Shown here: positions 104-58,893 of the stretch, piece by piece | Layout of the letters: every line of letters begins with the position of its first letter | Position numbering within the stretch: the stretch's first letter is position 1 | NCBI GenBank assembly: GCA_035379625.1 | Contig: DAOSVM010000005.1 | Span: 29,833 to 93,832, forward strand | DNA length: 64,000 nt | From: Ignavibacteriales bacterium | Lineage (GTDB): Bacteria; Bacteroidota; Ignavibacteria; Ignavibacteriales; DAOSCP01 | Direction: 5' to 3' | The notes under the pieces: generated by a model | Told to the model about the DNA's origin: nothing | The model's database searches: none | What the model saw: the letters and a program-made list of their open reading frames with translations, nothing else | Translations under genes and position numbers: made by a program

Positions 104-127
104 TGTACGAATGATACATTATTAAAT

Positions 128-166
128 AAAGCAAGCGAGCATAAGCAAGCTTGCTTTATTTTTATT
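128..166 (+). terminator. rho-independent terminator after serS
   Basis: Stem aaagcaagc (128-136) / gcttgcttt (149-157), followed by T-rich atttttatt. Confidence 0.6.
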
Positions 167-168
167 CA

Positions 169-684
169 TTAGCTCAGACAGTGTAAGTTTATGCCTCTTG
201 CAGCTTGATGAAAGCTGCAAGAGGCCAGCGGGCCGGTAAGGGCTCGCTAAAATTTTTCTAATAGCTCATTTACAAGGGGGAATAAAATCCTATTGACAGC
301 GTTGTTGGAGAGCAAAGGTTGTAAATTATGGTATATCATAATTACAAATATATAGATTATACAATTATATTGTAAAAACAAATATATTTTCAAAAATTTA
401 ATTATATCGTTAATACAAATATATTGTAAATACAAATATATTTTGTATAATTGCCATTATATCGTAATTACAATTATATCGAAGATACGAATATATTATA
501 TGAATTTTAAAATTTTCAACCTACATATAAAACTTACTTCAATAATTATTTGTATAAAAATATAAATGTTGTAAGTGGTAGATAATATGGTAGATAAAGG
601 GGGATAATTAGAATAATTTTTGGGCTTTAGCCCGCCCGTGCGCCTTCGTGCGCACGGGCTTTATGCTTATACCGTCTGAGCTAA
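169..684 (-). mobile_element. MITE-like ORF-less element, copy A (516 bp; inverted relative to B-D)
   Basis: TIRs are ttagctcagacagtgtaag (169-) and gcttataccgtctgagctaa (665-684). A perfect 14-bp hairpin lies at 193-206/212-225. A 10-bp hairpin gcccgtgcgc/gcgcacgggc lies at 634-643/650-659, with a mini-hairpin gggc/gccc at 622-625/630-633. The AT-rich core holds 7 phased 13-mers. The right end is the reverse complement of the left end of copy B. Confidence 0.75.
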
Positions 685-3376: not shown

Positions 3377-4048
3377 TTAATTATTGTTTTTTAATTTATT
3401 TATTTTATCCCTTAAAATAGCAGCGCGTTCGTAATCTTCTTTTTCGAGAGCTTCTCGTAATTGTATTTCAAGAAATGAGATATCATCAGACGAATTTGAT
3501 GATAGTTCTAAATCATTATCATTTTTAGAAATTTTCCTTAAAAACGGTTCATCCTCATCTTCATCATCATTTTGTTGAATTCTATCTTCATCATAATCAT
3601 CATTATTTAATGAGTTAGCTTGAGGAAATTGGGTATTTTCAGGTGGTTCAAATGCAACTTTATCCATTACATCATCGTATATGTATATAGGGGAACCAGT
3701 TCGTAGGGCAAGAGCAATTGCATCACTTGGGCGAGCATCGATTTCAATACGTAAACCAGATTGTTCAATTATAATGTTAGCAAAAAAGGTATTATCTCTC
3801 AAATCAACTATATTAACTTCTATAACTTCACCACCCAATGTTGTGATCACGTTTTTTAATAAATCGTGGGTTAAAGGTCTCGGTACGTTATAACCTTCAA
3901 GTTCCAACGCAATAGCATGTGCTTCAGCACCACCAATAATAATTGGTATTCTTTTATTTGAATTAATAGCTTTTAAAATAAGTGCATAACCGCCGCTGCT
4001 TGTAGATGTTGTAGATAATCCAAAAACAACTACTTCTGTTTTATCCAT
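3377..4048 (-). CDS. bifunctional nuclease family protein (DUF151) with C-terminal UVR motif
   Basis: The N-terminal region (PIIIGGAEAHAIALEL...RPLTHDL...ARPSDAIALALR) matches the BFN/DUF151 pattern. An acidic linker follows, then a UvrB/C-type motif EKEDYERAAILRDKINKL. Confidence 0.8.
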   Translation of the reverse strand: MDKTEVVVFGLSTTSTSSGGYALILKAINSNKRIPIIIGGAEAHAIALELEGYNVPRPLTHDLLKNVITTLGGEVIEVNIVDLRDNTFFANIIIEQSGLRIEIDARPSDAIALALRTGSPIYIYDDVMDKVAFEPPENTQFPQANSLNNDDYDEDRIQQNDDEDEDEPFLRKISKNDNDLELSSNSSDDISFLEIQLREALEKEDYERAAILRDKINKLKNNN

Positions 4049-4214
4049 TTCAAAATCTCCAATTTAAATTATAAGTATAATGAAAAAAAATGTTTTTACA
4101 AAATTATATTGTATAAAATTAATTTGTCTTATGATAATAATTTTATTAAACTATTAACAAAAATTTTCGAAAATAAATAAATTAGGTAAATTTAATCCAA
4201 CAACACATGGAGGT

Positions 4215-7200
4215 GTGATGACTAAATTCTTCAAATTGTTGACAATTCTGATGGTATTATTTATTAATGTTTCACTTTTTGCACAGGGTGCTTATGAAAT
4301 TACAGGAAGTGAAACGTGGTCAACAAATAAGCAATTTAATGTACCTGTTATTGTTAAATCAGGTGGAAAATTGACCATAGAAGCAGGAGTTACAATAGAG
4401 GTTTTTTATGCTGATGCTAATGCTGATAGCATAGGAGATTTCAAATTACAAGTTGAAGATGGTGGGAAATTGATTATTAATGGTACACTATCAAGCCCAG
4501 TAGTATTTCAACCTAAAGAGATATATCCAGTTAATAACCATTGGCAGGGTATAATTTTAAATTCTACTAACACTAACTACAGAGACACAATTAAATTTGT
4601 TACAATTAAGAATGCCTATGTTGGTTTAGATGTTTCTAGAGATTTATATGCAATTGGTGTTAAGGTACAAAATTCGTACAATACTGGTGTAAAAATAAAT
4701 AATTTTAACAGCCTGTCATCTTCATTCTATCATGGAATAAAAATTGATACTGTTTATAATTCTGGTACTGGTATATCAATTGCAAAAGAAGGAATAACCA
4801 TTAATAATGCATATGTACAAAAAGCAACTGGTGTAGGTATTGAACTTAAGGCCGGTTCTTTAACAATTAATAATTCTAAAGTGTTAACATCTGGTACTGG
4901 TATCTATAATAATGTAGCTAATACATTTGCAAATTTGAATACAGTTCAAGAGTCTTACATTTATAAAAATACTAAATCGGGTGTATTTAATAAAGGTGGA
5001 TACATAAAAATTTATAAAGATTCTATAGCAAGCAATACATTCCATGGTATTTTAACAAATGGTGGAAAACTATTGGTAGAGTTAAGTACAATTCACAAAA
5101 ATTCAAGCAGGGGTGTTTTAGTAGGTGGTGCTTCAGAAGTTAATTTTATTACTTCTACTGTTGATAGTAATAGTTCTTATGGTTTTGATATTTGTGAAGT
5201 TAATTTGGCTACTGATCAGTTATATTCTACTATTACAGGAACAAGCGTTGGGGCGCCTAAAATAATTGCAAACTTAAATAATATTAAAAGCAATAATGGT
5301 GGCAATACTCAGGTCCAGGTAAAGAGTAGAAGAACTACTCCTGTGAGTCCATCAAACCCACAAGATGATTTTACTCAAAATTATTGGTATTTAACAGAAA
5401 CCTTAGATGGTTTATTTAGCATGGATTTAAGTGGAACAGTTAACTATTGGAATTGGAAAACTTCTTCGTCACCCACTTCAAACTCTAAATTCCCAACTAG
5501 TACAGTAACTAACCCTACAACAATGTTAGCATTACTGAATACATCAGGTAATGGTTCCGGTACAATTGATGGTTTAGGTACAACAACATCAAACCCAACA
5601 TTCACATCAACTATTTCAGCAAGAGGTGGATATACTTTAAGATGGAATTCGGCAAAGCATTATCCATTTGTAAGAATTAAAATTGATACAACTGGCACCA
5701 CAGATGTAGGTACTTCGGATGCTAATTATACAAGTACACGAAGTATACTTTATGTTCCGAATAATGGATCCTATGAAATTCAAGTCTATAGAGATCCATA
5801 CCCTACTACTTCAGGTGCGTTATGGGATGATAATTATATGAGATTTACTGTTACTTTATATGATTATGATGGAAATGCGTCTACTTATGTTTATTATGGA
5901 TACCAAGATTTTGTCAATTATAATGCGAATAGAGGTAAAGTAATTTCTGTGAATGGAGTATCTACTGGTAATGCACAAACAATTTATAGTGGGAAACCAA
6001 TAAAAATTAAATGGACTGTAATTGACTCAGCCGGTACAAATGTAAATATTTATTACAAAAGAAGAAATATGGATCTTAGAGCGGCAAATTCATTAACAAT
6101 TGGAAATGCTAATTGTGCTGTTGACTTAATAGCTTCCAATGTTAATACAAAAGAAGTAAATGGTGAATATTTATGGACACCTCCAACTGATACTTTAACT
6201 ACAGGTATTAATAATGCAGTTGGTAAAATAGTAATTGTAAGAAATTTTGGTACGACGCCTACGACAGTAAGTGGAGCTAATATTGTAGATACTGCAAATA
6301 CCGCTTCAATTACTCTTGAGCCAGCACCTTATGCAGATTGGTTATATACAGACTCAACAAGTGTATCGCAAACAATAATAATAAAAGATGCTGTATTTAA
6401 CTTGAATGCTGCACCTGGCAACGGCACTATACGTTATAATGGTGATCTTTTAGGTCCAGGTCCATATTATTATAGAGTTCAAGTTGGAGACTATATCGGG
6501 GCATTCTATAATGGTGGACAAAATTGTGCAGGTTTTGTTAAAGTAACTACCGTTCCCGATGGTACTTTGACAAATGCAATATCATTAAAAGTTTGGGGTG
6601 ATGATCCAAATACTTCAGTTACAGATGGTGCTTCTGCTGGTGAGCAATTAACATTTAAAGTTTGGAGACCAAGATGGTTCAGAACAACCTCAGTTGTTGA
6701 GAAAAATGCTGAATATGATATAAACGGCAAAATAATTCCTGTTGATAGTGTTGTCTATCCATACAAGAATAATGCAGTAACTGGTATAGTATTTCAAAAT
6801 AATTCAGCTATTATATTAGATTCCTTGAGATATCTACGTGGTTCAAGCTCAGCCTCAACTGAAGGTACAGGTTCACAAACTGTTGCTTTAAGTAGTGGTT
6901 GGAATTTGGTATCATCATATATTGATGTTGCTGGTTTAACAGTTGAATTTGATAGACAATTTAGAATTGGTTCCAATAAAGCGACTGGTGTTTTAGATAC
7001 ATTAGGAGAAGTATGTGAATTAGTTAAAGACCCTGCTGCTAATATTTTATGGCCAGCTCAAAATGTGAATCAACTTGGTACTTGGGTAAATACAAGTTCA
7101 TACTACATTAAATTAACAGCAGCAGCAAACTTAATTTTCCCAAGAACAGGTAATGGAAATATTTTATCTCCTCAAAATACAGGTATAACTTTACAACCAG

Positions 7201-8090
7201 GTGTATGGAATCAAGTTGCATATTTAAGAAAAACAAATATGAATATATCTGATGCTTTAGTTAATATATTAGATAAGATTGAACTTGTAAAAGATGGTGC
7301 TGGAAATGTTTACTGGCCACTTTATGGAATTAACAATATTGGCCAAATGCAACCAGGACAAGGTTACTTAATAAAGACTAAATCAGGTATTTCGCAAGTT
7401 TCATTATTCTATCCTGCAAATACATTGTTACCAAAGAAACAACAAAATGTAGAAATTCCAAAACCTGAAAAATATGTTGTTAACTTTAATAGTGATAACA
7501 ATGCTACAGTAGCAATACCTGAAAACGTTATTTCTAAATATGCTAAAGAAGGTGATGAAGTAGGTATATTTAATAATGAAGGTAAATTGGTTGGTTCTGC
7601 TGTTTATACAAACGGAACAGTTGTTGTAACTGCTTGGGGTAAAGAAACTGGAAATGAAAAAGCTGAAGGTTTAGCAAATGGTGATAAATTCTCAATTAGA
7701 TTATTCAAGAAAGATGCTAACAAAGAGTTTGTATTGAAAACAACAAGCAGTGATAAAGTTTATACTCCTAACGGTGTTTATGTGATAGAAAATGTTAAAG
7801 GTGTTGAAGAATTCAGACCATTACCAAATAAATTTGATATTAGTCAAAATTATCCTAATCCATTCAACCCAACAACAACTATAAAATTTGCTCTTCCTGT
7901 TGATGCAAAAGTTGTAATAAATGTTTACAACGTTGTTGGTCAAAAAGTTGCTGAATTGGCTAATGGTGAATTTGAAGCTGGTTATCATACAGTTCAATTC
8001 AATGCTGCTGGCTTATCAAGTGGAATTTACTTCTACAAGATAGAAGCAGGGAAATTCACTGCTGTTAAGAAAATGATGTTAATTAAATAA
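4215..8090 (+). CDS. large secreted T9SS cargo protein with parallel beta-helix repeats
   Basis: Signal peptide. The N-terminal third has repeated G-rich beta-helix-like units (NSYNTGVKINN, NSGTGISIA, ATGVGIEL, TSGTGIYNN). The C-terminus NYPNPFNPTTTIKFALP...GIYFYKIEAGKFTAVKKMMLIK is a T9SS sorting domain. The start could be GTG 4215 or ATG 4218, after GGAGG. Confidence 0.85.
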   Translation: MMTKFFKLLTILMVLFINVSLFAQGAYEITGSETWSTNKQFNVPVIVKSGGKLTIEAGVTIEVFYADANADSIGDFKLQVEDGGKLIINGTLSSPVVFQPKEIYPVNNHWQGIILNSTNTNYRDTIKFVTIKNAYVGLDVSRDLYAIGVKVQNSYNTGVKINNFNSLSSSFYHGIKIDTVYNSGTGISIAKEGITINNAYVQKATGVGIELKAGSLTINNSKVLTSGTGIYNNVANTFANLNTVQESYIYKNTKSGVFNKGGYIKIYKDSIASNTFHGILTNGGKLLVELSTIHKNSSRGVLVGGASEVNFITSTVDSNSSYGFDICEVNLATDQLYSTITGTSVGAPKIIANLNNIKSNNGGNTQVQVKSRRTTPVSPSNPQDDFTQNYWYLTETLDGLFSMDLSGTVNYWNWKTSSSPTSNSKFPTSTVTNPTTMLALLNTSGNGSGTIDGLGTTTSNPTFTSTISARGGYTLRWNSAKHYPFVRIKIDTTGTTDVGTSDANYTSTRSILYVPNNGSYEIQVYRDPYPTTSGALWDDNYMRFTVTLYDYDGNASTYVYYGYQDFVNYNANRGKVISVNGVSTGNAQTIYSGKPIKIKWTVIDSAGTNVNIYYKRRNMDLRAANSLTIGNANCAVDLIASNVNTKEVNGEYLWTPPTDTLTTGINNAVGKIVIVRNFGTTPTTVSGANIVDTANTASITLEPAPYADWLYTDSTSVSQTIIIKDAVFNLNAAPGNGTIRYNGDLLGPGPYYYRVQVGDYIGAFYNGGQNCAGFVKVTTVPDGTLTNAISLKVWGDDPNTSVTDGASAGEQLTFKVWRPRWFRTTSVVEKNAEYDINGKIIPVDSVVYPYKNNAVTGIVFQNNSAIILDSLRYLRGSSSASTEGTGSQTVALSSGWNLVSSYIDVAGLTVEFDRQFRIGSNKATGVLDTLGEVCELVKDPAANILWPAQNVNQLGTWVNTSSYYIKLTAAANLIFPRTGNGNILSPQNTGITLQPGVWNQVAYLRKTNMNISDALVNILDKIELVKDGAGNVYWPLYGINNIGQMQPGQGYLIKTKSGISQVSLFYPANTLLPKKQQNVEIPKPEKYVVNFNSDNNATVAIPENVISKYAKEGDEVGIFNNEGKLVGSAVYTNGTVVVTAWGKETGNEKAEGLANGDKFSIRLFKKDANKEFVLKTTSSDKVYTPNGVYVIENVKGVEEFRPLPNKFDISQNYPNPFNPTTTIKFALPVDAKVVINVYNVVGQKVAELANGEFEAGYHTVQFNAAGLSSGIYFYKIEAGKFTAVKKMMLIK

Positions 8091-8102
8091 TGTTTTTTTC
8101 TG

Positions 8103-8133
8103 AAAAAAAGGGCTCTTTAAGAGCCCTTTTTTT
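8103..8133 (+). terminator. rho-independent terminator
   Basis: aaaaaaagggctc-tttaa-gagcccttttttt. Confidence 0.8.
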
Positions 8134-8179
8134 ATATTGGTATTATTTTTGATATATATTAAAAAAAACTTTGTGAACT

Positions 8180-13072: not shown

Positions 13073-14713
13073 ATGACACAAATTTTTAAGGTTCCACAAT
13101 TAGGTGAAAATATATCAGAAGCTACAATAGTAAAACTTTATGTTAAAGTTGGAGATACTGTTAAAAAAGATCAAATTTTGATGGAAGTTGAAGCCGGAAA
13201 AGCAAATCTAGAAATACAGGCAGATTTCGATGGTAAGATAACAAAATTGTTAGCAAATGAAGGGGATAAAATTCTTCCTTTGGGTGATATTGTTGAATAT
13301 GAGGTTACGGTTGAAACACCTCAGGACCCAATTATAAAGGAAGAGTTACCGGCGCAACAGACCACACTTACACCGTCTGAGCCAATTAAAGAAGAGAAAA
13401 AAAATAATATTTCTGAAGAAATTGAAGTATTATTACCAAATTTGGGAGAGAATATTGCAGAGGCTACCGTTGTTAAGGTAAATATTAAGGTTGGTGATGA
13501 AATTAAGAAAAATGAAATTGTTCTTGAGGTTGAAACCGGTAAGGCATCATTGGAGATTACATCGGAGTATGACGGTTCGATTAAAGCTGTTTTTGTTAAA
13601 GAAGGGGATAAAATTAAAATAGGGGATAAAATTTATACTATATTGGCTCGGACAGAAATAAGCTTGCCTTCGGATAAACCGAAGGAGGTTTCACCTGAAA
13701 TTAAAAAAGAAGTTCAAGTTGACACAAAGATTGAACCTAAACAAGAAAAAATAGCTAACACTGATGAATTTAAAGTTGATACGTATAATGTAAGTAAAAA
13801 TATTTTTGTGCTTGCATCACCTTCAGTAAGGAAATTTGCAAGAGAAATTGGAGTAACAATATCTGACGTAAAACCATCTGATGGCAAAAGAGTTACAATT
13901 GAAGATGTGAAGCAGCATGCTAAAAATATATTGCAAAATTTAGGTAAAGCTGAAGTTAATCAAGCTAAAATTCCACAGAGCGGATATTTTGAACCGCTTC
14001 CAGATTTTACTAAGTGGGGAGATATAAAAGCTGAGGAATTAAGTAATATCCGAAGAGTAACCGCGCAGCATTTACATTTTTCGTGGTCGCAAATACCGCA
14101 TGTTACGCAGTTTGATAAGGCAGATATTACAGATTTAGAAGAGTTTCGTTTGAAGCTTGTTAAAAAGTATCCTGATTCGAAGATTACAATTACATCCATA
14201 ATTGCAAAAGTTCTAAGCTTAGCATTGAAGAAATTTCCACAATTTAATTCAAGTTTAGATTTACAAAATAATAAATTAATTTATAAGAATTATTACCATA
14301 TTGGTATTGCAGTTGATACCGACAAAGGTTTGGTTGTTCCAGTAGTAAGGGATGTTGACAAAAAATCATTATTTGATATATCAAAGGATATAAATTTATT
14401 AGCAATCAAAGCAAGAGATAAAAAATTATCATTAGAAGAGATGCAGGGGGGAACATTTACAATATCGAATTTAGGTGGTATTGGAGGTACCTATTTTACA
14501 CCGATAGTAAATTATCCTGAAGTTGCTATATTAGGAATATCTAGAAGTTCGTATGAGCCCAAATATAATGGAACAACTTTTGAGCCAAGATTGATGTTGC
14601 CTTTATCGTTATCATATGATCATAGAGTAATAGATGGAGCTGATGGGATAAGATTTTTGAGATACATTATTGATATTTTAGAAAATCCATACAATATGTT
14701 GATACAATTATAA
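13073..14713 (+). CDS. 2-oxoacid dehydrogenase E2 component (dihydrolipoamide acyltransferase), two lipoyl domains
   Basis: Two lipoyl motifs (MEVEAGKANLEI, LEVETGKASLEI). E3-binding domain ASPSVRKFAREIGV. Catalytic motif SYDHRVIDGADG. Confidence 0.9.
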   Translation: MTQIFKVPQLGENISEATIVKLYVKVGDTVKKDQILMEVEAGKANLEIQADFDGKITKLLANEGDKILPLGDIVEYEVTVETPQDPIIKEELPAQQTTLTPSEPIKEEKKNNISEEIEVLLPNLGENIAEATVVKVNIKVGDEIKKNEIVLEVETGKASLEITSEYDGSIKAVFVKEGDKIKIGDKIYTILARTEISLPSDKPKEVSPEIKKEVQVDTKIEPKQEKIANTDEFKVDTYNVSKNIFVLASPSVRKFAREIGVTISDVKPSDGKRVTIEDVKQHAKNILQNLGKAEVNQAKIPQSGYFEPLPDFTKWGDIKAEELSNIRRVTAQHLHFSWSQIPHVTQFDKADITDLEEFRLKLVKKYPDSKITITSIIAKVLSLALKKFPQFNSSLDLQNNKLIYKNYYHIGIAVDTDKGLVVPVVRDVDKKSLFDISKDINLLAIKARDKKLSLEEMQGGTFTISNLGGIGGTYFTPIVNYPEVAILGISRSSYEPKYNGTTFEPRLMLPLSLSYDHRVIDGADGIRFLRYIIDILENPYNMLIQL

Positions 14714-24021: not shown

Positions 24022-24450
24022 TTACTTAATTTCTATTTGTTTTGCAGCTGGTTTTTCAGGTTCTTTCTTTTGCATTGTAATTGTAAGTACACCATTTTCG
24101 TAATTAGCTTCAATTGTGTCTGTTAAGACATCATCACCGAGGTTAAAGCTTCTTGTAAACGCTCCTTCAACTCGTTCAGATAAATAATATTTCTTATCTT
24201 TTTCTGTTTTTTCAAATCTTTTTTCACCTTGGATTGTGAGAACATTATTATCAAGAGTTACTTTAATATCATCTTTTTTGAAACCAGGAACTTCAATCTC
24301 GAAGTTTAATTTTCCATCTTTTTCATAAACATCGATTGATGGATATAATTTTGTTGTTGAAGGAGCTGCAAAGACATCAGTTACATAACGTTCAAATTCT
24401 TTAATAGCATTTTCAAATTCTTTGAACGGATTATACTTTACTAATGCCAT
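24022..24450 (-). CDS. Hsp20/alpha-crystallin small heat-shock protein
   Basis: Alpha-crystallin domain: ...IEVPGFKKDDIKVTLDNNVLTIQGEK...GAFTRSFNL...ANYENGVLTI. Confidence 0.9.
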   Translation of the reverse strand: MALVKYNPFKEFENAIKEFERYVTDVFAAPSTTKLYPSIDVYEKDGKLNFEIEVPGFKKDDIKVTLDNNVLTIQGEKRFEKTEKDKKYYLSERVEGAFTRSFNLGDDVLTDTIEANYENGVLTITMQKKEPEKPAAKQIEIK

Positions 24451-24474: not shown

Positions 24475-24897
24475 TTATTTTATTTCTATTTGTTTTACTT
24501 CTGGTTTAACAGGTTCTATTTTGTTTAATGTTATTGTCAAAACTCCGTTTTCAAAACTAGCTGAAATATTTTCTTTGTCAATTGTTTCATCAAGTGTAAA
24601 GCTTCTTGAGAATGAACCACTCATTCTTTCGCTAAAGTAATACTTCCTATCTTTCTTTTCAGTTTCTAATTTCTTTTCTCCCGAAATTGTTAACATGTTT
24701 TCTTCTAAGGTTATTTTTACATCGTCCTTTTTGAAACCAGGTATTTCTACTTCTAAGATTATTTTGTTATCTTCTTCATAAGCATCAACTTTTACTAAAT
24801 GATTATAATTTACATTGTTTCTTGTTTGTACATCATTTAGTAAATTATCGAATTCTTTGAATAAAGATAACACTGGATTAAATCTTACTAATGTCAT
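24475..24897 (-). CDS. Hsp20/alpha-crystallin small heat-shock protein (second copy)
   Basis: Paralogue of the gene above (VEIPGFKKDDVKITLEENMLTISGEK...GSFSRSFTL...ASFENGVLTI). I start at MTLVRFNP (ATG 24897), which is preceded by GGAGGG. The longer ORF to 25110 adds an implausible Cys/Ile-rich extension. Confidence 0.88.
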   Translation of the reverse strand: MTLVRFNPVLSLFKEFDNLLNDVQTRNNVNYNHLVKVDAYEEDNKIILEVEIPGFKKDDVKITLEENMLTISGEKKLETEKKDRKYYFSERMSGSFSRSFTLDETIDKENISASFENGVLTITLNKIEPVKPEVKQIEIK

Positions 24898-25232
24898 GGC
24901 ACCCTCCAAATTTTTAATTTTGTTATTTAATTTCGCCAATAATAATACAACTACCGTGCCAAAAGTTGCAATATCTTTACAACTAATTGATGAACAATGA
25001 GTTATAAAAATTACAATAAAAATAACACATAATTGGTTACATGTCGTACAATATGACAAAATGATATATATTAAGACAAAAAAGCAAAAAATATGATAAA
25101 AATAATGCACTCTCTAATTGTCAATAACTTGAAAATATTTTTGTTAGAGCTATTGACTTTTATAAATTACCTTAATAAATTGATTTTAAGGTCTACAATT
25201 ATTGAGCGAATTATAAAAAAACAGGAGGTATT

Positions 25233-36155: not shown

Positions 36156-36652
36156 TTAGCTCAGACAGTGTAAGCATAAAGCCCGTGCGCCTGGCGGCGC
36201 ACGGGCGGGCTGAAGCCCAAAAAAATAATATTCCATTTAAGCGCCATAACCACCACATTACCAACCAGTTACAATATTTATATTTTTCATCAAGAATAAA
36301 AATTTTATGAAATATTTTTTATAATTTACCGGCAAGTTTTCAAATCTTATAATATATTCGTAAATACGATATAATAGCTTTAACAATATAATTGTAAATG
36401 CAATTATACTATAAAAAACATAGCATCATATGTAAAAATTTGCAAAATTACATTTTAGCTTAGTCAAAAGATTAATTTTTATCAAACACTCCTTATCCTA
36501 CGGGTTGCCAGGTATTTTGGAAAGATATAAGTATAAAGGCCAAAGCACTACACTTTGTTAGGTGTTAAAGAAAAGATTTTATGCGGGCCGTTCCGGCCCG
36601 CGCCCACGTGCGGCAACGCCGCACGTGGGCTATGCTTATACCGTCTGAGCTA
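36156..36652 (+). mobile_element. MITE-like ORF-less element, copy B (497 bp)
   Basis: Alpha end: TIR ttagctcagacagtgtaagc (36156-75), hairpin gcccgtgcgc/gcgcacgggc (36181-90/36197-206), then gggc-tgaa-gccc and an A-run. Beta end: hairpins gcgggccg/cggcccgc (36583-90/36594-601) and gcccacgtgcggc/gccgcacgtgggc (36602-14/36618-30), then TIR gcttataccgtctgagcta (36634-52). The core is AT-rich. Confidence 0.75.
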
Positions 36653-40448: not shown

Positions 40449-40918
40449 TTAGCTCAGACGGTGTAAGCTTAGCCCGCTTGCGCGGGCAGGGCTAAAGCCC
40501 AGAATAAATATTTAACATACAACCCCATATCAACAATATAATCAACACCTTACGCTATTTATTTAGCATAAAATCAACTAAAATTTATAGTTTTTTATAC
40601 AAATAATATATTCGTATTTGCAATATATTTGTATTTACGATATATTAGCAATTATTAAAAATATCTTTGTAATTGTATTATATTTGTATTTGTAATAATA
40701 TTGTATCTACGATATATATTATCTTCAAAATTATATTGTTTTATAGATATAGTTTTAAAAGCTGTAAGTAATTAAAATATTGCAGGAATTTTTTTTGTAG
40801 ATAAGAAGATTTTTAATTGTTAGCAAAAATGCTTCGCCAACCAACTTTATATTAAGGAAGAAAATTAATTCCCCTTACAAAAGGGGATTAAAGGCTATGC
40901 TTATACTGTCCGAGCTAA
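40449..40918 (+). mobile_element. MITE-like ORF-less element, copy C (470 bp)
   Basis: Alpha end: TIR ttagctcagacggtgtaagc (40449-68), hairpin gcccgc-ttgc-gcgggc (40472-87), then gggc-taaa-gccc. Beta end: hairpin tcccctt-acaa-aagggga (40870-87) and TIR gcttatactgtccgagctaa (40899-918). The core holds 17-bp phased motifs. Confidence 0.75.
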
Positions 40919-40941
40919 TGAAAAATTTTTTTTTCAATAAT

Positions 40942-40973
40942 AAAAAAAAGCCCTTGCTTGGTTAGCAAGGGCT
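40942..40973 (-). terminator. rho-independent terminator after the T9SS gene
   Basis: Minus strand: agcccttgct-aacca-agcaagggct followed by tttttttt. Confidence 0.8.
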
Positions 40974-40991
40974 AGATAAATAATTATATCT

Positions 40992-42849
40992 TTATTTGAC
41001 CAACATCATCTTTTTGCTAATTTTTACATTTCCTGCTTCTAAACTGTAAATATAAATACCACTTGTTAAGCTATTTCCATTGAAGTTGATGCTGTAATAA
41101 CCTGCTTCTTGCTCGCCTTCATATAATTTCATAACTTCTTGGCCTGCAATGTTGTAGACTTTCAATATAACTTTTGAGCTTTGTGGTATACCATAATTTA
41201 TTACTGTAGTTGGATTAAAAGGATTTGGATAATTTTGTTTTAATTCATATTGCATTGGACGTATGTTTTCCAATACCAATGTATTGCTGTATTTGTAGCT
41301 GCCATCGTTATCTACTATCTTCAAACGATATGAACTATTTGACGTAATATTATTGTCTTCAAAACTATATTTATGTTCCACATTTGAATTTCCTGCTGCT
41401 GTAACTTCACCAACCTTTAACCATTTTCCCGAAACTAATTTTTCAACTTCAAATCTATTACTATTAACCTCAGATTTTGTAATCCAAGTTAGCTCAATTT
41501 TTGAGTTAATATATCTATAGTTAAATGAAGATAACTCAACAGGAAGCGGACCATCGATGATTATTACATCATCTATATAGTTGGATTGGTATGAATTCCC
41601 ACTTGCTCCTATTGCAATTAGATAATTACCCGCCGCAAGAGGTGATAAATCTACGCTACATAAATTCCAAGAATAAACTGCGTTAAAAGTTGAACCAATT
41701 TGTGTCCAATTTGTTCCGTTATCTGTAGAATATAACACTTTATTACTACCAGAACCATAATTATAAAATTGGATTAACCCACTCCCACCTTGTAATGTTA
41801 CATTTTTGTAGATTTTCTCATCAGTAAAACTACTGCTAGAATAACATTGAGCACTTGCATTTCCACCAGGTCTATAAATTGATGTATTTCTACTATATTT
41901 TGTGCTTGCAGACCAACCTGTAGGTGGGAAAGTTATATTTTCAAATCCTTCCGCTGTTGTACCTGCTGGGAAAATAGTAACATTTGTGTTGGCAGTATTA
42001 TTCGTATTATTATCATCAGCTTGAGATTCAGCTGTAACAGTGAAAATACCACCAACTGTTGGAGTCCAAGGAATATCAATATTGGTTGTTTGACCGGCGT
42101 TAAGACTTGCTATTGTACCACTATTGACTGTATTAGTCCCAACTTTCAAATTAATTGTAATATTGGAAAGATTATTTAAACCTTCATTAGATACGTTAAC
42201 TCTAAATGTTTGTTCATTTCCCGCAATTTGGTTACCAGTGTATAATTGGACAGAATTTACTTTTATATCATTATTATTTACAACACTAATTTCAAATTTA
42301 TCAATCCAAACATCATTTAAACTGTAAGCTGCATTTACTTCCAAAGCAAATTTTGCATTATTTACATTATAAGCTAGTGGAATATCAAACGTTTTTTTTT
42401 GTCCAACTTGTTGATGTTGTAACATTACTTCCTATTTGATTAAAAGTGCTACCACCGTCAGATGAAGCGTATACTTTAACTATAGCCGAACCAGAATAGT
42501 AATAATGATAAAATGACAACCTTTTACTTGATGTTGATGATAAATCAATTTGTGGTGTTATAAGTCTTCTGGTATTACCAGAATTACAATAATAATCATT
42601 GAAATGAGCAACTGCAGAACCATCATAAGCCCCAGTAGGTTTAGTCCCATTACCTAAAGGAGACCAAGAACCACTCCATACTGCCTTTTCCCAATATATT
42701 GATGTATTTGTACCGGTAGCGATTTGTGCCCAACCTGAAGGTGCTGTACCGTTTGTACTAGGAGACCAAGTTCCTTCAAATGAATCGCTAAATATTACTT
42801 GAGCATTTAATGTAAAAGATATAAATAAAAAATAAAATAATTTTTTCAT
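40992..42849 (-). pseudogene. T9SS cargo protein (choice-of-anchor-J-like x2, CARDB-like, C-terminal sorting domain) split by a frameshift in an A9 run
   Basis: ORFs 42385-42849 and 40992-42425 overlap at the coding-strand A9 tract (42392-42400). With A8 the reading ...TSWTKKTFDIPLAYN... is continuous (~618 aa). The N-terminal signal is followed by FSDSFEG...PSGW. A second copy reads AEGFENITFPPTGW. The C-terminus is NYPNPFNPTTVINYGIP...GIYIYSL...KMMLVK. Confidence 0.7.
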
Positions 42850-42942
42850 TTTAACTCCTTGTTAATATTTGTTATATATAAATTATGTAAAATAAATATA
42901 ATTGTCAAGTTAAATATTTTGTAAACACGATATATATTTTTA

Positions 42943-43353
42943 TTAGCTCAGACGGTGTAAGCTTAGCCCGCTTGCGCGGGCAAGGCTAAAGCCCAGAAAA
43001 ATTCTTACTAACACGCTATAACTTACCTATTTTCAATGAATTACAGTATATTTATATTTTTTACAATAATCAAAAATGAAAAATTATGAATATTAATAGC
43101 AAATGTAAAATTCTTATAATATTTTTGTATATACGATATAATTGTACCTGCAATATAAATTAAATTTGCGAAAATATATACTTATATACGATATTGTATA
43201 AAAAAACGAAAATATTAGTAATGTAAAACAATAGTATAAATAATATAATTGTATTAGTGATATATATTAGGTAAAGCTCCGCTATACCTGCGTGCTGGCA
43301 GGCAACTACTTGTTAAGAGTGCAATAGGTTTAAGCTTATACTGTCCGAGCTAA
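42943..43353 (+). mobile_element. MITE-like ORF-less element, copy D (411 bp)
   Basis: The alpha end (42943-42998) matches copy C at 55 of 56 positions. The beta end has a weak hairpin cctgc/gcagg (43287-91/43298-302) and TIR gcttatactgtccgagctaa (43334-53). That TIR plus flank matches C over 26 bp. Confidence 0.75.
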
Positions 43354-50312: not shown

Positions 50313-51538
50313 TAGTTATAACTCACTAAAAAAATTTGCAAATCAGTAGTTGGGATAAACTTCAAATCGTTATTTACTCCAATTAAATACGCTTCACCTT
50401 TATTAACAATAATTTCTTCGTTAAAGTTTCTAAGAGCAAAACTATTACCAATATTTAATAAAATATAAAATTTATCATATGAATTAAATTCTACCTGACT
50501 TTTCGAAAAAACTCGCCGAATGTTAAATTCAATATTAAAAGCATTTTTTGAGTTTTCTATTTGGCTCGGACGGTGTAAGCTTGATGGCCGCTGTAACTGA
50601 CTTTTAGCACCAAAACCTTCTGTTATATAGTCGAAAACTTCACTAACAGGTTTAATCAATAAAAGATCATCAGTTACTTTGAAAATTTTTATAAGAGTTG
50701 CAATATCCTTGAACTTAGGAGTTAAACCAATTCTTACAACATTATCAGAATTAGCCATACATTCGACAATATTTCCAGTTAAGTAAGCGTGCGGAATTCC
50801 AGCTTCCAAAAATACAGCTTCACCTTCTTTTAACTCAACAAAATTCAATAAATAAAGGCACAATAAACCAACATCATATTTTCCATACTTTTCATAACAA
50901 AATTTATAATAATTAGATAATTTATCATTTTCTGACTTGATTTTATTATAAATAAAATCGGTTAATTTAGCATACTCAGGATTATTTTGAGAATTACTAA
51001 CATAAGCTTTAAATATATCGCTTGGTGAATGACTTTCAACATTAATAAAATGATTTAAATAAGTTTTAATTTCTGGAAAAATAACAAAAAGTTCATTCAA
51101 CTTTTCAATGGATTTTAAACCAACCAAAGCTTCCAATTTATCTATTGCTATTGCAATTTCAGGTTTATGGTTGTCATCAGGATAATTATTAGGATCTTTC
51201 AAATGTAATACCGCAGCTTGTTGCTTATTCGGATGAGCCTGAATTGAAAGCGGTTGCTCAATCGATAATACTTTTAAAAGAAATGGAAGTTTAATATATT
51301 TTTCATAAAACTTTGTACCAATTATATCTTTTTCTTTTTCAATAAAATCAGATAATAAAATAGTTTCATTTTTATAAATTATTTTTGAAGGTAAAGATGG
51401 ATGAACACCTAACCAATACTCAGCATATGGTTTATTTGGTTCTGTTTTAATATTTAAAAGTTTTGGGATATAAGCATTTTCGTTTCGTGTTCCCCAATCA
51501 TAATGTTGTATATTTCCAGTAAGCTTAAAAACATTCAT
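50312..51538 (-). CDS. manA: mannose-6-phosphate isomerase, class I
   Basis: HYDWGT, QAHPNK, YPDDNHKPEIAIAI and CMANSDNVVRIGLTPKFKD are type I PMI signatures. The gene contains an in-frame TIR-like insert (see the repeat feature at 50561-50595). Confidence 0.9.
   Translation of the reverse strand: MNVFKLTGNIQHYDWGTRNENAYIPKLLNIKTEPNKPYAEYWLGVHPSLPSKIIYKNETILLSDFIEKEKDIIGTKFYEKYIKLPFLLKVLSIEQPLSIQAHPNKQQAAVLHLKDPNNYPDDNHKPEIAIAIDKLEALVGLKSIEKLNELFVIFPEIKTYLNHFINVESHSPSDIFKAYVSNSQNNPEYAKLTDFIYNKIKSENDKLSNYYKFCYEKYGKYDVGLLCLYLLNFVELKEGEAVFLEAGIPHAYLTGNIVECMANSDNVVRIGLTPKFKDIATLIKIFKVTDDLLLIKPVSEVFDYITEGFGAKSQLQRPSSLHRPSQIENSKNAFNIEFNIRRVFSKSQVEFNSYDKFYILLNIGNSFALRNFNEEIIVNKGEAYLIGVNNDLKFIPTTDLQIFLVSYN
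50561..50595 (+). repeat. solo alpha-TIR-like relic of the element family inside the manA coding sequence
   Basis: ttggctcggacggtgtaagctt matches the C/D alpha end (ttagctcagacggtgtaagctt) at 20 of 22 positions. It is followed by a partial hairpin arm (ggccgctg). It is read in frame as ...QLQRPSSLHRPSQ... Confidence 0.6.
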
Positions 51539-58295: not shown

Positions 58296-58893
58296 TTGGG
58301 CTCGGGCAGTATAAGCTTAGAATATAGCAATTATCACCTTAAATTTATAACTTTACACCTAACCTTAACACAAATCATTAACCTTGAGCATGTTAACAAA
58401 AAATTTTTGAAATACTCACAATCTTTTATTCTCGTTAATGTTACAATAGAATAATATTAATTTAACTATTAATTTTAGCACTCTTAATTTGAAAAATTAA
58501 ATAAAAATTATACCTCAATTAAAAAATTGTTAAAAATTAGACAAAATAAAGTAATTTATCCGTAAGCAATAATTATATAGAAATATTTAAATATATAATA
58601 AAAAATAAATTTAAATTAGCTTAATATATAGATAAAATACTATTTTTATCAAAATATTTACTAAAAATTAAAAATATTTATAACCTACTGATAAATAATA
58701 AGATATATAAAAATTATAAATAAACAAAAACAAAATATAAAATAAAAAATCTTATAATTAAAGAAAATAATATGAAAAAAACAAATATAAAAAAAAGTTA
58801 GTATGGCTTAAAAAAAACAATATATCGTATATAAATAATATTGCAAATACAAATATATTGTAAATACAATTATATAATTATTATAAGCTCGGT
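58296..58893 (-). mobile_element. degenerate or rearranged copy E of the element family
   Basis: The left end ttgggctcgggcagtataagc (58296-316) resembles the reverse complement of the C/D beta TIR, with 2 substitutions and a 1-nt indel. A core group with TAC motifs 17 bp apart (58848, 58865) and an abutting inverted half-site lies at 58818-58880. A truncated taagctcgg sits at 58883-92. No GC hairpins are present. Confidence 0.4.

Follow-up and report, generated by a model that had tools for sequence, protein, structure and literature searches.

The segment at positions 36581-36652 of the window, which is the whole 64-kb stretch of DNA that was analysed, is with high confidence the beta terminal module of copy B, one member of a non-coding, high-copy family of TIR elements (MITEs) of Ignavibacteriales. 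The host is an Ignavibacteriales MAG, and the family, which is very abundant in Ignavibacteria, is previously undescribed, while the element type itself is already known. Its members are gene-less and mostly 280-810 bp long (roughly 400-700 bp), and each of their ends comprises, in order, an 18-19 bp TIR, a spacer of 4-6 nt, a single GC-rich perfect palindrome or a pair of them, and an A/T tract. These end modules are abundant, symmetric in structure, tied to the TIR, and turned over by recombination.

Copy B (36157-36652, plus strand) is complete in the alpha-to-beta direction, lies between the htpG terminator and a pyruvate:ferredoxin oxidoreductase gene, and is recognized by its TIR pair, its sequence, and its orthologues in four other strain contigs. 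The alpha end consists of the TIR (36157-36175, plus strand) and, within 36181-36218, the hairpins H1' (36181-36206, 11 bp), which is followed by TTTATGCTTA when read outward, and H2' (36207-36218, gggctgaagccc). The AT-rich core at 36330-36425 is built of palindromic units with a period of about 17 bp (TATATCGTAAATACGATATAAT), and this array is 111 nt shorter, through loss, than in the other strains. At the beta end, the 8-bp hairpin H2 (36583-36601, gcgggccg-ttc-cggcccgc), whose sequence is conserved across the family, is followed by H1 of type II (36602-36630), a 13-bp perfect palindrome of the form gcccacgtgcggc-aac-gccgcacgtgggc, by the spacer TATG (36631-36634), and by the TIR (36635-36652, minus strand), which reads TAGCTCAGACGGTATAAG inward.

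Three further copies are present in the window. Copy A (170-683, minus strand), which is complete and inverted relative to B, carries a beta end with the TIR at 170-187, H1 at 193-225, and H2 at 227-248, and an alpha end with H2' at 622-633, H1' at 634-659, and the TIR at 666-683. Copy C (40450-40917, plus strand) has a 6-bp H1' (40472-40487) and an H2' (40489-40500) at its alpha end, and a beta TIR (40900-40917) beside the hairpin tcccctt/aagggga (40870-40887), which is a truncated outer part of H1, with H2 absent. Copy D (42944-43352, plus strand) possesses an alpha H1' (42966-42981) and a beta TIR (43335-43352), with no significant beta hairpin. A probable degenerate copy at 58298-58890 (plus strand) displays a TIR-like end with three mismatches and a 17-bp repeat array at about 58810-58886, without hairpins, and a solo TIR-like 18-mer with two mismatches to the pattern, likewise without a hairpin, occupies 50562-50579 (plus strand) within the 3' part of a phosphomannose isomerase ORF. 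No ORF of at least 100 aa is contained in the copies of the window.

The TIR, TAGCTCRGACRGTRTAAGC, with the consensus form TAGCTCRGACRGTRTAAG(C), is found at both ends of copies A-D and of 79 further elements, is nearly invariant at positions 4-19 except at its A/G sites, and has 10 matches in the 64-kb window against 0.04 expected. Beyond the window, metagenomes supplied 79 unique paired elements together with 212 unique ends, drawn from at least three Ignavibacteria populations, and the unique paired copies occupy different loci in several populations; the copy number is likely in the hundreds, with one common repeat. The alpha and beta TIR variants remain distinct from each other, and a third end type, designated gamma, occurs besides them. 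A scan of genome contigs with the 18-mer TIR returned mostly chance matches among the matches listed, the same scan of viral contigs returned no match, and neither the TIR sequence nor a MITE of Ignavibacteria turned up in the literature searched. The TIR bears a resemblance to a tRNA D-arm; the sole tRNA in the Rfam scan of the window sits elsewhere.

The hairpins reported in the preliminary description are present in the copies named: the 14-bp perfect stem of A at 193-225 and its imperfect companion at 227-248, both beta hairpins of B, the 7-bp stem of C, and the alpha stems of A and B, which are identical with different loops. The contrast of GC-rich islands with an AT-rich background also stands, with a GC content of 0.83-0.84 in the hairpins of B against 0.21-0.25 in the cores of A and B and 0.30 in the window. 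Relative to shuffles, the beta regions of B (z-scores of -6.6/-8.1) and A (-5.2/-4.9) fold far more strongly, the beta region of C is not significant alone (-0.9/-1.1), and the 5-bp stem cctgc/gcagg of D behaves like shuffled sequence (-0.09/+0.43), so that the assertion of a hairpin at every beta end holds for A and B and fails for D. Strong perfect hairpins (at least 8 bp with at least 6 GC pairs) occur at six places in 64 kb, all six tied to the MITE, and none were obtained in 30 shuffles of the window. Of 165 classified ends, 164 (65/66 alpha, 85/85 beta, and 14/14 gamma) bear, 4-6 nt inside the TIR, a hairpin whose stem pairs perfectly over at least 6 bp, and neither a general lack of beta hairpins nor a loss of complementarity, the two outcomes named earlier as contradicting selection on structure, was seen. 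The stems are about 99% Watson-Crick paired, with 23 stem mismatches in total over the three end classes, and the loops are hypervariable, with 34-48 distinct loops per end class.

The stems had been regarded as unrelated in sequence, which proves incorrect: those of A (GCCTCTTGCAGCTT), of the common type (GCCCCTTGCRGCTT), of B (GCCCACGTGCGGC), and of C (CCCCTT) form one homologous palindrome family linked by intermediates. One palindrome, GCCCCTTGCRGC, underlies the stems of A, B, and C, which differ by changes of both arms, a mirrored indel, and tip deletions, CCCCTT being what such a deletion leaves of the stem's outer part. A mirrored indel and one both-arm change separate type I from type II, with L108 and L030 as intermediates. 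Stem variants include GCAGC/GCTGC versus GCGGC/GCCGC, GCCCG../..CGGGC, GCCGC../..GCGGC, and GCCTC../..GAGGC, and those of H2, which is 98.8% paired and nearly invariant, are compensated on both arms (GCGGGTC..GACCCGC and GCTGGCC..GGCCAGC). In the 76 beta ends of alignment A4, pairing is seen in 94.3% of the cells, six pairs have changed on both sides, and none of 500 shuffles reaches any of the pairing measures; one pair occurs as GC in 38 ends, AU in 34, and UA in 2, with 2 unpaired. The proposal that selection acts on a hairpin at this position rather than on its sequence is partly supported: pairing at a fixed position beside the TIR is what is conserved, but H2 and the alpha H1' are conserved in sequence and therefore uninformative on structure versus sequence.

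Whether a pair is A:T or G:C shows no correlation with the remainder of the element, requiring 13 parsimony steps where random labels require 13.9, and independent both-arm events cannot be counted on a tree because the modules recombine. Palindrome behaviour of a DNA type is seen between near-identical strains and copies: a 7-nt deletion at the H1' tip occurs as well as loop changes, the H2 loop is reverse-complemented (GTTCC for GGAAC) in 3 of 76 ends, and hairpin-less alpha ends reflect a precise deletion between GCCC repeats. Copies are mosaic, as illustrated by the exchange of H2 together with about 170 nt between the orthologous copies L013 and L116, and the divergence of copy B between strains amounts to 1.8-7.2%, compared with 0.4-1.6% in the adjacent non-coding flanks. 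The alpha H1' sequence GCCC--GTGCGCC aligns to the type II beta stem (GCCCACGTGCGGC); with high confidence, both modules have diverged from a single ancestral extended terminal repeat, about 70 nt long, and the hairpins are therefore original to the ends and not later insertions. The arrangement extends to a divergent family in L081, in which the order H2-H1-TIR is kept with quite different stems.

A search inside long TIR pairs, beside solo TIRs, and for multi-copy ORFs revealed no transposase, no autonomous copy, and no RAYT; the contents of the two long TIR pairs are an HsdS gene and an uncharacterized ORF, the ORFs beside solo TIRs are housekeeping genes, and no ORF proved to be multi-copy. 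Empty sites were likewise absent among the loci and in the strain contigs of three window proteins, where the strain relatives are all about 99% identical. Because neither a transposase nor an empty site was found, we infer mobility, and any part of the hairpins in transposition, only from the dispersal of the copies. Of the 79 elements, 42 are flanked by TA at both ends, without excess over the per-end frequencies, and this TA is indistinguishable from the TIR's own first two bases; no target-site direct repeat longer than TA was detected in the 79 elements. As regards descent from IS630/Tc1-mariner, a group marked by TA duplication, the flanks fit T|TA|A in an AT-rich palindromic context, but 25% of beta ends have G at position 2. 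Orientation is identical in the five strain orthologues of B and in all other orthologous pairs.

The explanation that is tentatively favoured, with slightly less than half of our confidence, is that the palindromes are cis-acting DNA hairpins within the ancestral extended terminal repeat, maintained by element-level selection together with hairpin-templated correction. The level of action would then be DNA and the role presumably one in transposition: as intrastrand hairpins or cruciforms beside the transposase-binding TIR, the palindromes may aid propagation of the element, for instance by letting the transposase or a host protein position the ends or recognize them by their structure. Changes in one arm would be either copied to the other arm or lost, leading to perfect symmetry, and templated correction would generate both-arm substitutions, mirrored indels, and tip deletions. 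Hairpin presence shows no significant dependence on how the neighbouring gene is oriented (p = 0.25), a result that counts against a host-level role at individual loci. Against the favoured explanation, known DDE-type TIR transposons do not, to our knowledge, need subterminal hairpins. A more specific proposal, which we regard as rather improbable, is that the transposase or a host partner recognizes DNA hairpins or cruciforms instead of sequence both at the donor ends, where the subterminal palindromes would serve, and at the target, where the structures would be intrinsic-terminator hairpins with insertion 5-35 nt away. Such recognition would explain the recurrent terminator module that travels with the TIR, and, if true, it would define a TIR transposon with structure-specific recognition of both ends and target.

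The main rival to a cis-acting DNA hairpin is a function in RNA, as terminators, insulators, or 3'-end stabilizers, which is possible yet doubtful; transcripts from core promoters would be kept in, or flanking ones kept out, making insertions near gene 3' ends harmless. Several observations fit such a function: 75-77% of the flanks are gene 3' ends (median distance of about 45 nt), most copies lying downstream and not upstream of genes; the AT-rich core has many sigma-70-like matches on both strands; and terminator-like small repeats are already known (SPRITE; PMC10969869, PMC3049150). An intrinsic terminator has a GC-rich stem directly followed by a U tract; the alpha H1' read outward is scored terminator-like in A and B, and gamma ends read inward show a canonical terminator by sequence, in which CCGCACAACTGAAGTTGTGCGG runs into TTTTTT close to the inner edge of the TIR, so the terminator or insulator role suggested in the preliminary description retains support at these two end types, although in opposite directions. 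It loses that support at the beta end in question, where the outward tail is TATGCTTATAC or TTAAGCTTA, H2 read inward leads to the family consensus tail TAAAAATC, and a U tract is absent in either direction; the tails of copy B itself, TATGCTTATA outward and ATAAAATC inward, are not scored as terminators. Canonical terminators located 5-35 nt outside the TIR accompany about 19% of flanks against 1.4% of background, which favours an RNA role; that many flanks already own a terminator speaks against it. In the window, the canonical terminator at 124-160 (plus strand; aaagcaagcgagcataagcaagcttgcttt and a T run), 13 nt outside the beta TIR of A, belongs to a recurrent family seen only beside TIRs, and an H1-like GC hairpin at 40949-40973 (minus strand; AGCCCTTGCT..AGCAAGGGCT and then a T run), 31 nt outside the beta TIR of C, holds a terminator position 19 nt past the stop of the minus-strand gene 40992-42425. 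Stem mismatches comprise 8 G·T and 10 A·C, indicating no strand-specific G·U tolerance on either strand in this small set (n = 18 only), and this, together with the independence from facing-gene orientation noted above, speaks against action in RNA. Two other RNA candidates were rejected: a structured RNA that the element would encode upstream of its beta hairpins, where RNAalifold predicted nothing except H1 and H2, and long-range RNA pairing between the TIRs, whose variable A/G sites show no covariation from one end to the other and imply A·C mismatches on either strand. Rfam yielded no family for the element under gathering or relaxed thresholds: the only match in the window is the tRNA mentioned above, and copy B yields chance-level matches only (E up to 1).

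It is also conceivable, though unlikely, that the hairpins are functionless, having been inherited from the ancestral long terminal repeat, kept perfect by mutation alone, through intrastrand template switching in quasi-palindromes, and spread by recent bursts and by gene conversion between copies. The mirrored indels and the both-arm changes without G·T intermediates, the deletions of tips and of whole hairpins, the loop inversions, the mosaic copies, the raised divergence of copy B, and the pair states uncorrelated with the rest of the element are all in line with this explanation, as is the persistence of C and D in several strains despite weak or absent beta hairpins. Palindromes are, however, prone to deletion, yet the hairpin is kept at nearly all classified ends; the TIR-adjacent position is retained in alpha, beta, gamma, and the divergent family despite different stems; and stems of about 83% GC would be hard to maintain without selection in a genome of 30% GC. 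A secondary insertion of the GC palindromes into the ends, which had been offered as an alternative, would make them independent mobile modules similar to REP or yeast mitochondrial GC clusters and is very improbable. Different stems at the same position, similar hairpins just outside some TIRs (40949-40973 and the outer terminator family), and the exchange of H2 between L013 and L116 would accord with it, but the H1, H1', and H2 motifs in about 1 Mb have 87, 137, 136, and 46 counted positions near a TIR (within 130 nt) against 2, 2, 0, and 0 far from one, and both far H2 matches among these four exceptions fall, on reading, inside element ends. Since they are not found standing alone without a TIR, the GC hairpins are not independent mobile palindromes, a conclusion reinforced by the single homologous series of stems and by the homology between the alpha and beta H1. 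Least probable of all is that the elements are invertible promoter switches (invertons) bounded by recombinase-recognized inverted repeats and not transposons. Invertons are widespread in Bacteroidota, a related phylum, and an 18-19 bp inverted-repeat pair around a promoter-like, AT-rich stretch of 300-500 bp would suit one; against this stand the single orientation of all orthologous copies, including the five of B, the location of most copies downstream of genes, the likely hundreds of copies with one common repeat, and the distinct alpha and beta TIR variants.

Among known systems, bacterial MITEs such as Correia/NEMIS, RUP, ERIC, and Nezha are similarly short, non-coding, high-copy, and intergenic, with TIRs and a possible TA duplication. 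Bacterial MITEs are known to recombine, to rearrange genomes, and possibly to carry promoter-like or terminator-like signals (PMC10969869). The Ignavibacteriales element differs from known MITE families, in which it is mainly the TIRs that fold, in its discrete GC palindromes inside the TIR, its both-arm changes, and its AT core of 17-bp units. A further relative in design is the MITE BrickBuilt of Porphyromonas gingivalis, a species that falls with the Ignavibacteriales host in the same Bacteroidota-Chlorobiota-Ignavibacteria group. BrickBuilt is likewise always intergenic and has TIRs, a short tandem array of variable copy number, and bidirectional promoter activity, but its TIR, GAGACCTTTGCA, is like that of the IS5 family members ISPg1 and ISPg9, its repeats measure 23 nt instead of 17, and subterminal GC hairpins are not mentioned in the passages of its description that were consulted (PMC4596501).

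REP, BIME, and REPIN-RAYT systems share GC-rich extragenic palindromes of 20-40 nt, inverted pairs, a location downstream of genes, and high copy number (PMC2817692, PMC3733652). The present element has an 18-19 bp TIR outside the hairpin, a spacer of 300-500 nt, and no GTAG or CGTC head, the spacers after ...GTRTAAGC being ATAAA or TTAA(G), and its hairpins do not occur without the TIR, unlike REP units, which stand singly or in doublets; no RAYT (Y1 transposase) gene occurs among the ORFs examined from the partly covered genome. The subterminal hairpins and the lack of a proven target duplication recall IS200/IS605 and PATE, but the ends of IS200/IS605 are structure-recognized hairpins, left and right on one strand, without TIRs, whereas a strong TIR is the most conserved feature of the Ignavibacteriales MITE. 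SPRITE and intrinsic terminators resemble it in having GC hairpins near gene 3' ends, a pattern matched by the alpha end in the outward direction and by the gamma end in the inward one, and differ from the beta hairpins in the U tract that the latter lack either way.

The results add a new, abundant MITE family for Ignavibacteria, a group with sparse mobile-element annotation, and provide a clean natural data set on symmetric palindrome evolution across about 200 ends and between 99%-identical strains, which bears on whether selection or hairpin-templated correction lies behind "compensatory" changes of DNA palindromes. The MITE also shapes the host genome by marking terminator-proximal safe sites and carrying promoter-like arrays; a two-gene deletion has occurred between copies, and short-read assemblies are broken at the element. 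If the hairpins are needed for transposition or target choice, this would be a way of recognizing ends that is new among TIR elements.

The site at 36581-36652 constitutes the beta-type end of copy B, one of four window copies (A-D) of a noncoding element with terminal inverted repeats (TIRs), and reads ...atGCGGGCCGttcCGGCCCGC GCCCACGTGCGGCaacGCCGCACGTGGGC tatg CTTATACCGTCTGAGCTA. It comprises an 8-bp hairpin termed H2 (36583-36601), a 13-bp hairpin termed H1 (36602-36630), and the 18-nt beta TIR (36635-36652), which together with its partner at 36157-36174 bounds an element of 496 bp. The TIR pattern TAGCTCAGACRGTRTAAG was matched 10 times in the window with at most 3 mismatches, against 0.04 matches expected, and such matches delimit copies A (170-683, inverted), C (40450-40917), and D (42944-43352), with a solo match at 50562. 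No ORF of at least 100 aa lies inside any of copies A-D. The host is identified as an Ignavibacteriales MAG, the window's HtpG sharing 100% identity with a protein so annotated. A further TIR-like end at 58298, recovered by repeat search and fuzzy scan, is part of a degenerate copy. On the minus strand at 13367-13384, in the linker of a lipoyl-domain acyltransferase ORF (13073-14713), an 18-mer agrees with the TIR at all but one position; it has no adjoining hairpin or other element sequence and is probably a chance match within coding sequence.

The preliminary description had placed a hairpin inside every beta TIR, and those of copies A, B, and C were recovered exactly where it located them. 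In single-stranded folding, the beta ends of B and A reached z values of -4.9 to -8.1 relative to shuffles; the 7-bp stem of C was not significant (z about -1), and the 5-bp stem proposed for D folded no better than shuffled sequence (z -0.09/+0.43). Counting perfect hairpins whose stems have 8 or more bp and 6 or more GC pairs gave six sites in the window and none in 30 shuffles. Five of these sites are subterminal hairpins belonging to A and B, and the sixth (40949-40973) lies 31 nt beyond the beta TIR of C, on its outer side. The hairpins are indeed GC-rich islands in AT-rich surroundings, with a GC content of 0.83-0.84 for those of B versus 0.21-0.25 in the cores of A and B.

A metagenome scan with the TIR and spacer yielded 80 loci, mostly from the bioreactor-type data set Ga0116168, whose population is assigned to a species other than that of the window since no alignment of at least 600 nt to the window was found beyond the element itself. 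Among the matches listed for species-representative genomes, the element is present in at least one Ignavibacteriales MAG. The family set comprised 79 unique paired elements and 212 unique ends of three main types, namely alpha (TIR-ATAAA-GCCCGTGCGCC(loop)GGCGCACGGGC-GGGCTAACGCCC-AAAAA), beta (TIR-TTAA-H1-A-GCGGGCCG GAA CGGCCCGC-TAAAAATC), and gamma (TIR-GTG-CCGCACAACTGAAGTTGTGCGG-TTTTTTGCAAT). The first alpha hairpin, H1' (GCCC--GTGCGCC), aligns with type II of beta H1 (GCCCACGTGCGGC), indicating that the two ends diverged from a single extended terminal repeat of ~70 nt. The alpha-beta consensus spans ~540 nt, with an AT-rich core of palindromic units at a period of ~17 bp (TTGTAAATACAA, CGTAATTACG, TATAAT), seen in the window at 330-520, 36330-36425, 40600-40720, 43110-43200, and 58810-58886; sigma-70-like -35/-10 matches are numerous on either strand of these arrays, which may represent a set of protein-binding sites or promoters.

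Several variants accompany this family. In L028, a locus outside the window, a TIR pair at 3752-5723 retains normal alpha and beta hairpin modules, while the usual core is replaced and a 398-aa type I restriction-modification specificity subunit (HsdS, Methylase_S) is enclosed, which may be passenger cargo. A divergent relative from activated sludge (L081, 2620-2700) carries H2 (AGCGGGGC-TTCG-CCCCGCT), H1 (ACCCCAGCGTGCG-GAAA-CGCACGCTGGGGC), and a diverged TIR-like sequence, keeping the H2-H1-TIR order with quite different stem sequences.

At 65 of 66 alpha, 85 of 85 beta, and 14 of 14 gamma ends, a perfect hairpin with 6 bp or more was found 4-6 nt inward of the TIR, with 23 stem mismatches in total across the three classes. 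In A4, a MAFFT alignment of 76 beta ends, 94.3% of cells are paired (98.8% in the H2 helix), falling to 32-52% when partners are slid; both-sided changes occur at six pairs, and none of 500 shuffles attained even one of the five measures. The main covarying pair is GC in 38 ends, AU in 34, and UA in 2, and is unpaired in 2. Further both-arm variants include GCCCG../..CGGGC, GCCCT../..AGGGC, GCCGC../..GCGGC, GCCCA../..TGGGC, and GCCTC../..GAGGC, the last being that of window copy A, as well as GCGGGTC..GACCCGC and GCTGGCC..GGCCAGC in H2. H1 types I and II are separated by a mirrored indel of one base and a mirrored substitution, with intermediates at L108 (GCCCCCGTGCGGC) and L030 (GCCCATGTGCGGC), and the TCCCCTT/AAGGGGA stem of copy C is the outer H1 stem left after a tip deletion. 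The stems, previously considered unrelated in sequence, thus form a single palindrome family whose arms change together. Loops are hypervariable, the 66 alpha ends having 34 different loops and the 85 beta ends 48; H2 and alpha H1' are nearly invariant and hence uninformative on structural versus sequence constraint. The original observation is largely right, its errors being the unrelated stems and the stem of D, and the proposal that selection favors a hairpin at this site is borne out in substance, albeit overstated because the stems are homologous.

How often the arms changed together is obscured by exchange between copies. On a neighbor-joining tree of the rest of the element, the A:T/G:C pair state requires 13 changes versus 13.9 for random labels. 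The orthologous copies at L013 (334-830) and L116 (6943-7468) occupy the same site with flanks 99-100% identical, and they match at 100% across the alpha half and across the beta TIR with H1, while H2 and ~170 nt beside it are replaced, which shows module exchange between copies. Copy B differs between strains by 1.8-7.2%, against 0.4-1.6% in the adjoining noncoding flanks (alignment A3), suggesting ectopic gene conversion from paralogous copies. Such mosaic copies and divergence indicate that recombination or gene conversion shuffles modules, so that independent both-arm events are not countable; the robust point is that disagreement between the arms almost never occurs. Compared with four strains (L120, L122, L123, and L124), the window's copy B has a 17-bp repeat array shorter by 111 nt, at 36355-36356, which looks like slippage inside the array, and a 62-nt internal tandem repeat differs in copy number between the orthologous copies L084 and L085. 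The closely related strain L120 carries at 7744-8150 one chimeric element, with the left flank and alpha end of C and the interior and right flank of D, in place of window 40450-43352, where two genes (477 aa, with CARDB and Por_Secre_tail domains, and 154 aa) separate C and D; the difference suggests that direct copies recombined, or that the event ran the other way. L122 and L123 have a different secreted-protein gene after C. Elsewhere in the window, the adjacent minus-strand ORFs 24022-24450 and 24475-25110 share a 100-nt stretch of 73% identity at their 3' ends and look like tandem paralogues unrelated to the hairpins.

As to the level at which the hairpins act, single-sided stem mismatches on the inward-read strand comprise 8 G·T and 10 A·C, wobble pairs being tolerated on neither strand, and RNAalifold, applied to the final 190 nt in 29 copies, predicted H2 and H1 alone. 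The ends also display behavior typical of DNA palindromes: a 7-nt deletion of the H1' tip in two strains, H1' variants with shortened stems, both alpha hairpins precisely deleted between GCCC repeats, and an H2 loop present as its own reverse complement at 3 of 76 ends. The TIR varies only as A/G, never C/T, at positions 2, 7, 11, 14, and 17 on the strand read 5'-TAGCTC-3', with G favored at alpha and A at beta ends at positions 11 and 14 and the states at the two ends uncorrelated, a pattern that fits protein-binding sites rather than an RNA stem. The TIR sequence TAGCTCAGACGGT (170-187 and all TIRs) folds in MFE structures into a 3-bp stem closed by an 11-nt loop and resembles the 5' part of the bacterial tRNA D-arm (TAGCTCAGTCGGTAGAGC); several insertions lie downstream of tRNA-3'-end-like sequences (L050, L055, L093, L096, and L101).

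A role as terminators or insulators is the leading alternative, less probable than the reading preferred below. In a consensus scan of A and B, alpha H1' read outward is terminator-like (stem followed by TTTATGCTTA), and the beta hairpins gave no terminator score; gamma ends contain a canonical terminator when read inward, making the direction inconsistent among end types. Gene 3' ends account for 75-77% of element flanks, at a median distance of about 45 nt, and hairpin presence shows no association with neighboring-gene orientation (p = 0.25). Canonical terminators occur 5-35 nt outside the TIR at about 19% of 201 flanks versus a background of 1.4%. One recurrent canonical module, AAAGCA(A/G)G..GAGC..CTTGC + T7 (+ATTTTAAAAAAT.CTCTT)CAT, sits beyond one TIR, at a distance of 13-32 nt, in 22 unique flanks, one of them in the window's own species; its sites include window 124-160 and flanks at L018, L020, L028, L034, L047-L049, L054, L061, L062, L068, L078-L080, L088, L097, L102, L108, L110, and L114. 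Found beside any end type, with covarying stems, and never seen at a distance from a TIR, the module may represent a favored target or be an outer unit that is co-mobilized.

That the hairpins are independent mobile palindromes was rejected as highly improbable, since their motifs cluster near TIRs: in about 1 Mb, H2, H1', and two H1 motifs occurred 87, 137, 136, and 46 times within 130 nt of a TIR and 2, 2, 0, and 0 times far from one, both distant H2 matches lying in element ends (one truncated beta end and one end of a divergent family). Slighter still is the chance that the elements are invertons. Maintenance by mutation alone is improbable, more so than a terminator role but less so than these two readings.

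With regard to mobility, no transposase or RAYT was found among long TIR pairs and ORFs next to solo TIRs, no multicopy ORF among the ORFs searched, and no empty site among the loci and strain contigs; the flanks, with a T|TA|A context, are compatible with a putative TA duplication. Logan short-read contigs carrying a GDSL lipase gene (L128-L132) end at or within about 100 nt of the 3' end of this gene, where copy A borders it, which fits assembly failing at a high-copy repeat. A literature search returned neither a match to the TIR sequence nor a description of Ignavibacteria MITEs, the closest architectures being the BrickBuilt MITE of P. gingivalis (PMC4596501), REP/BIME/REPIN elements (PMC2817692, PMC3733652), and SPRITE (PMC10969869). 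The reading preferred here, tentatively and at somewhat less than even confidence, is that the hairpins belong ancestrally to the terminal module, functioning as cis-acting DNA hairpins under element-level selection combined with hairpin-templated symmetrization of their arms.
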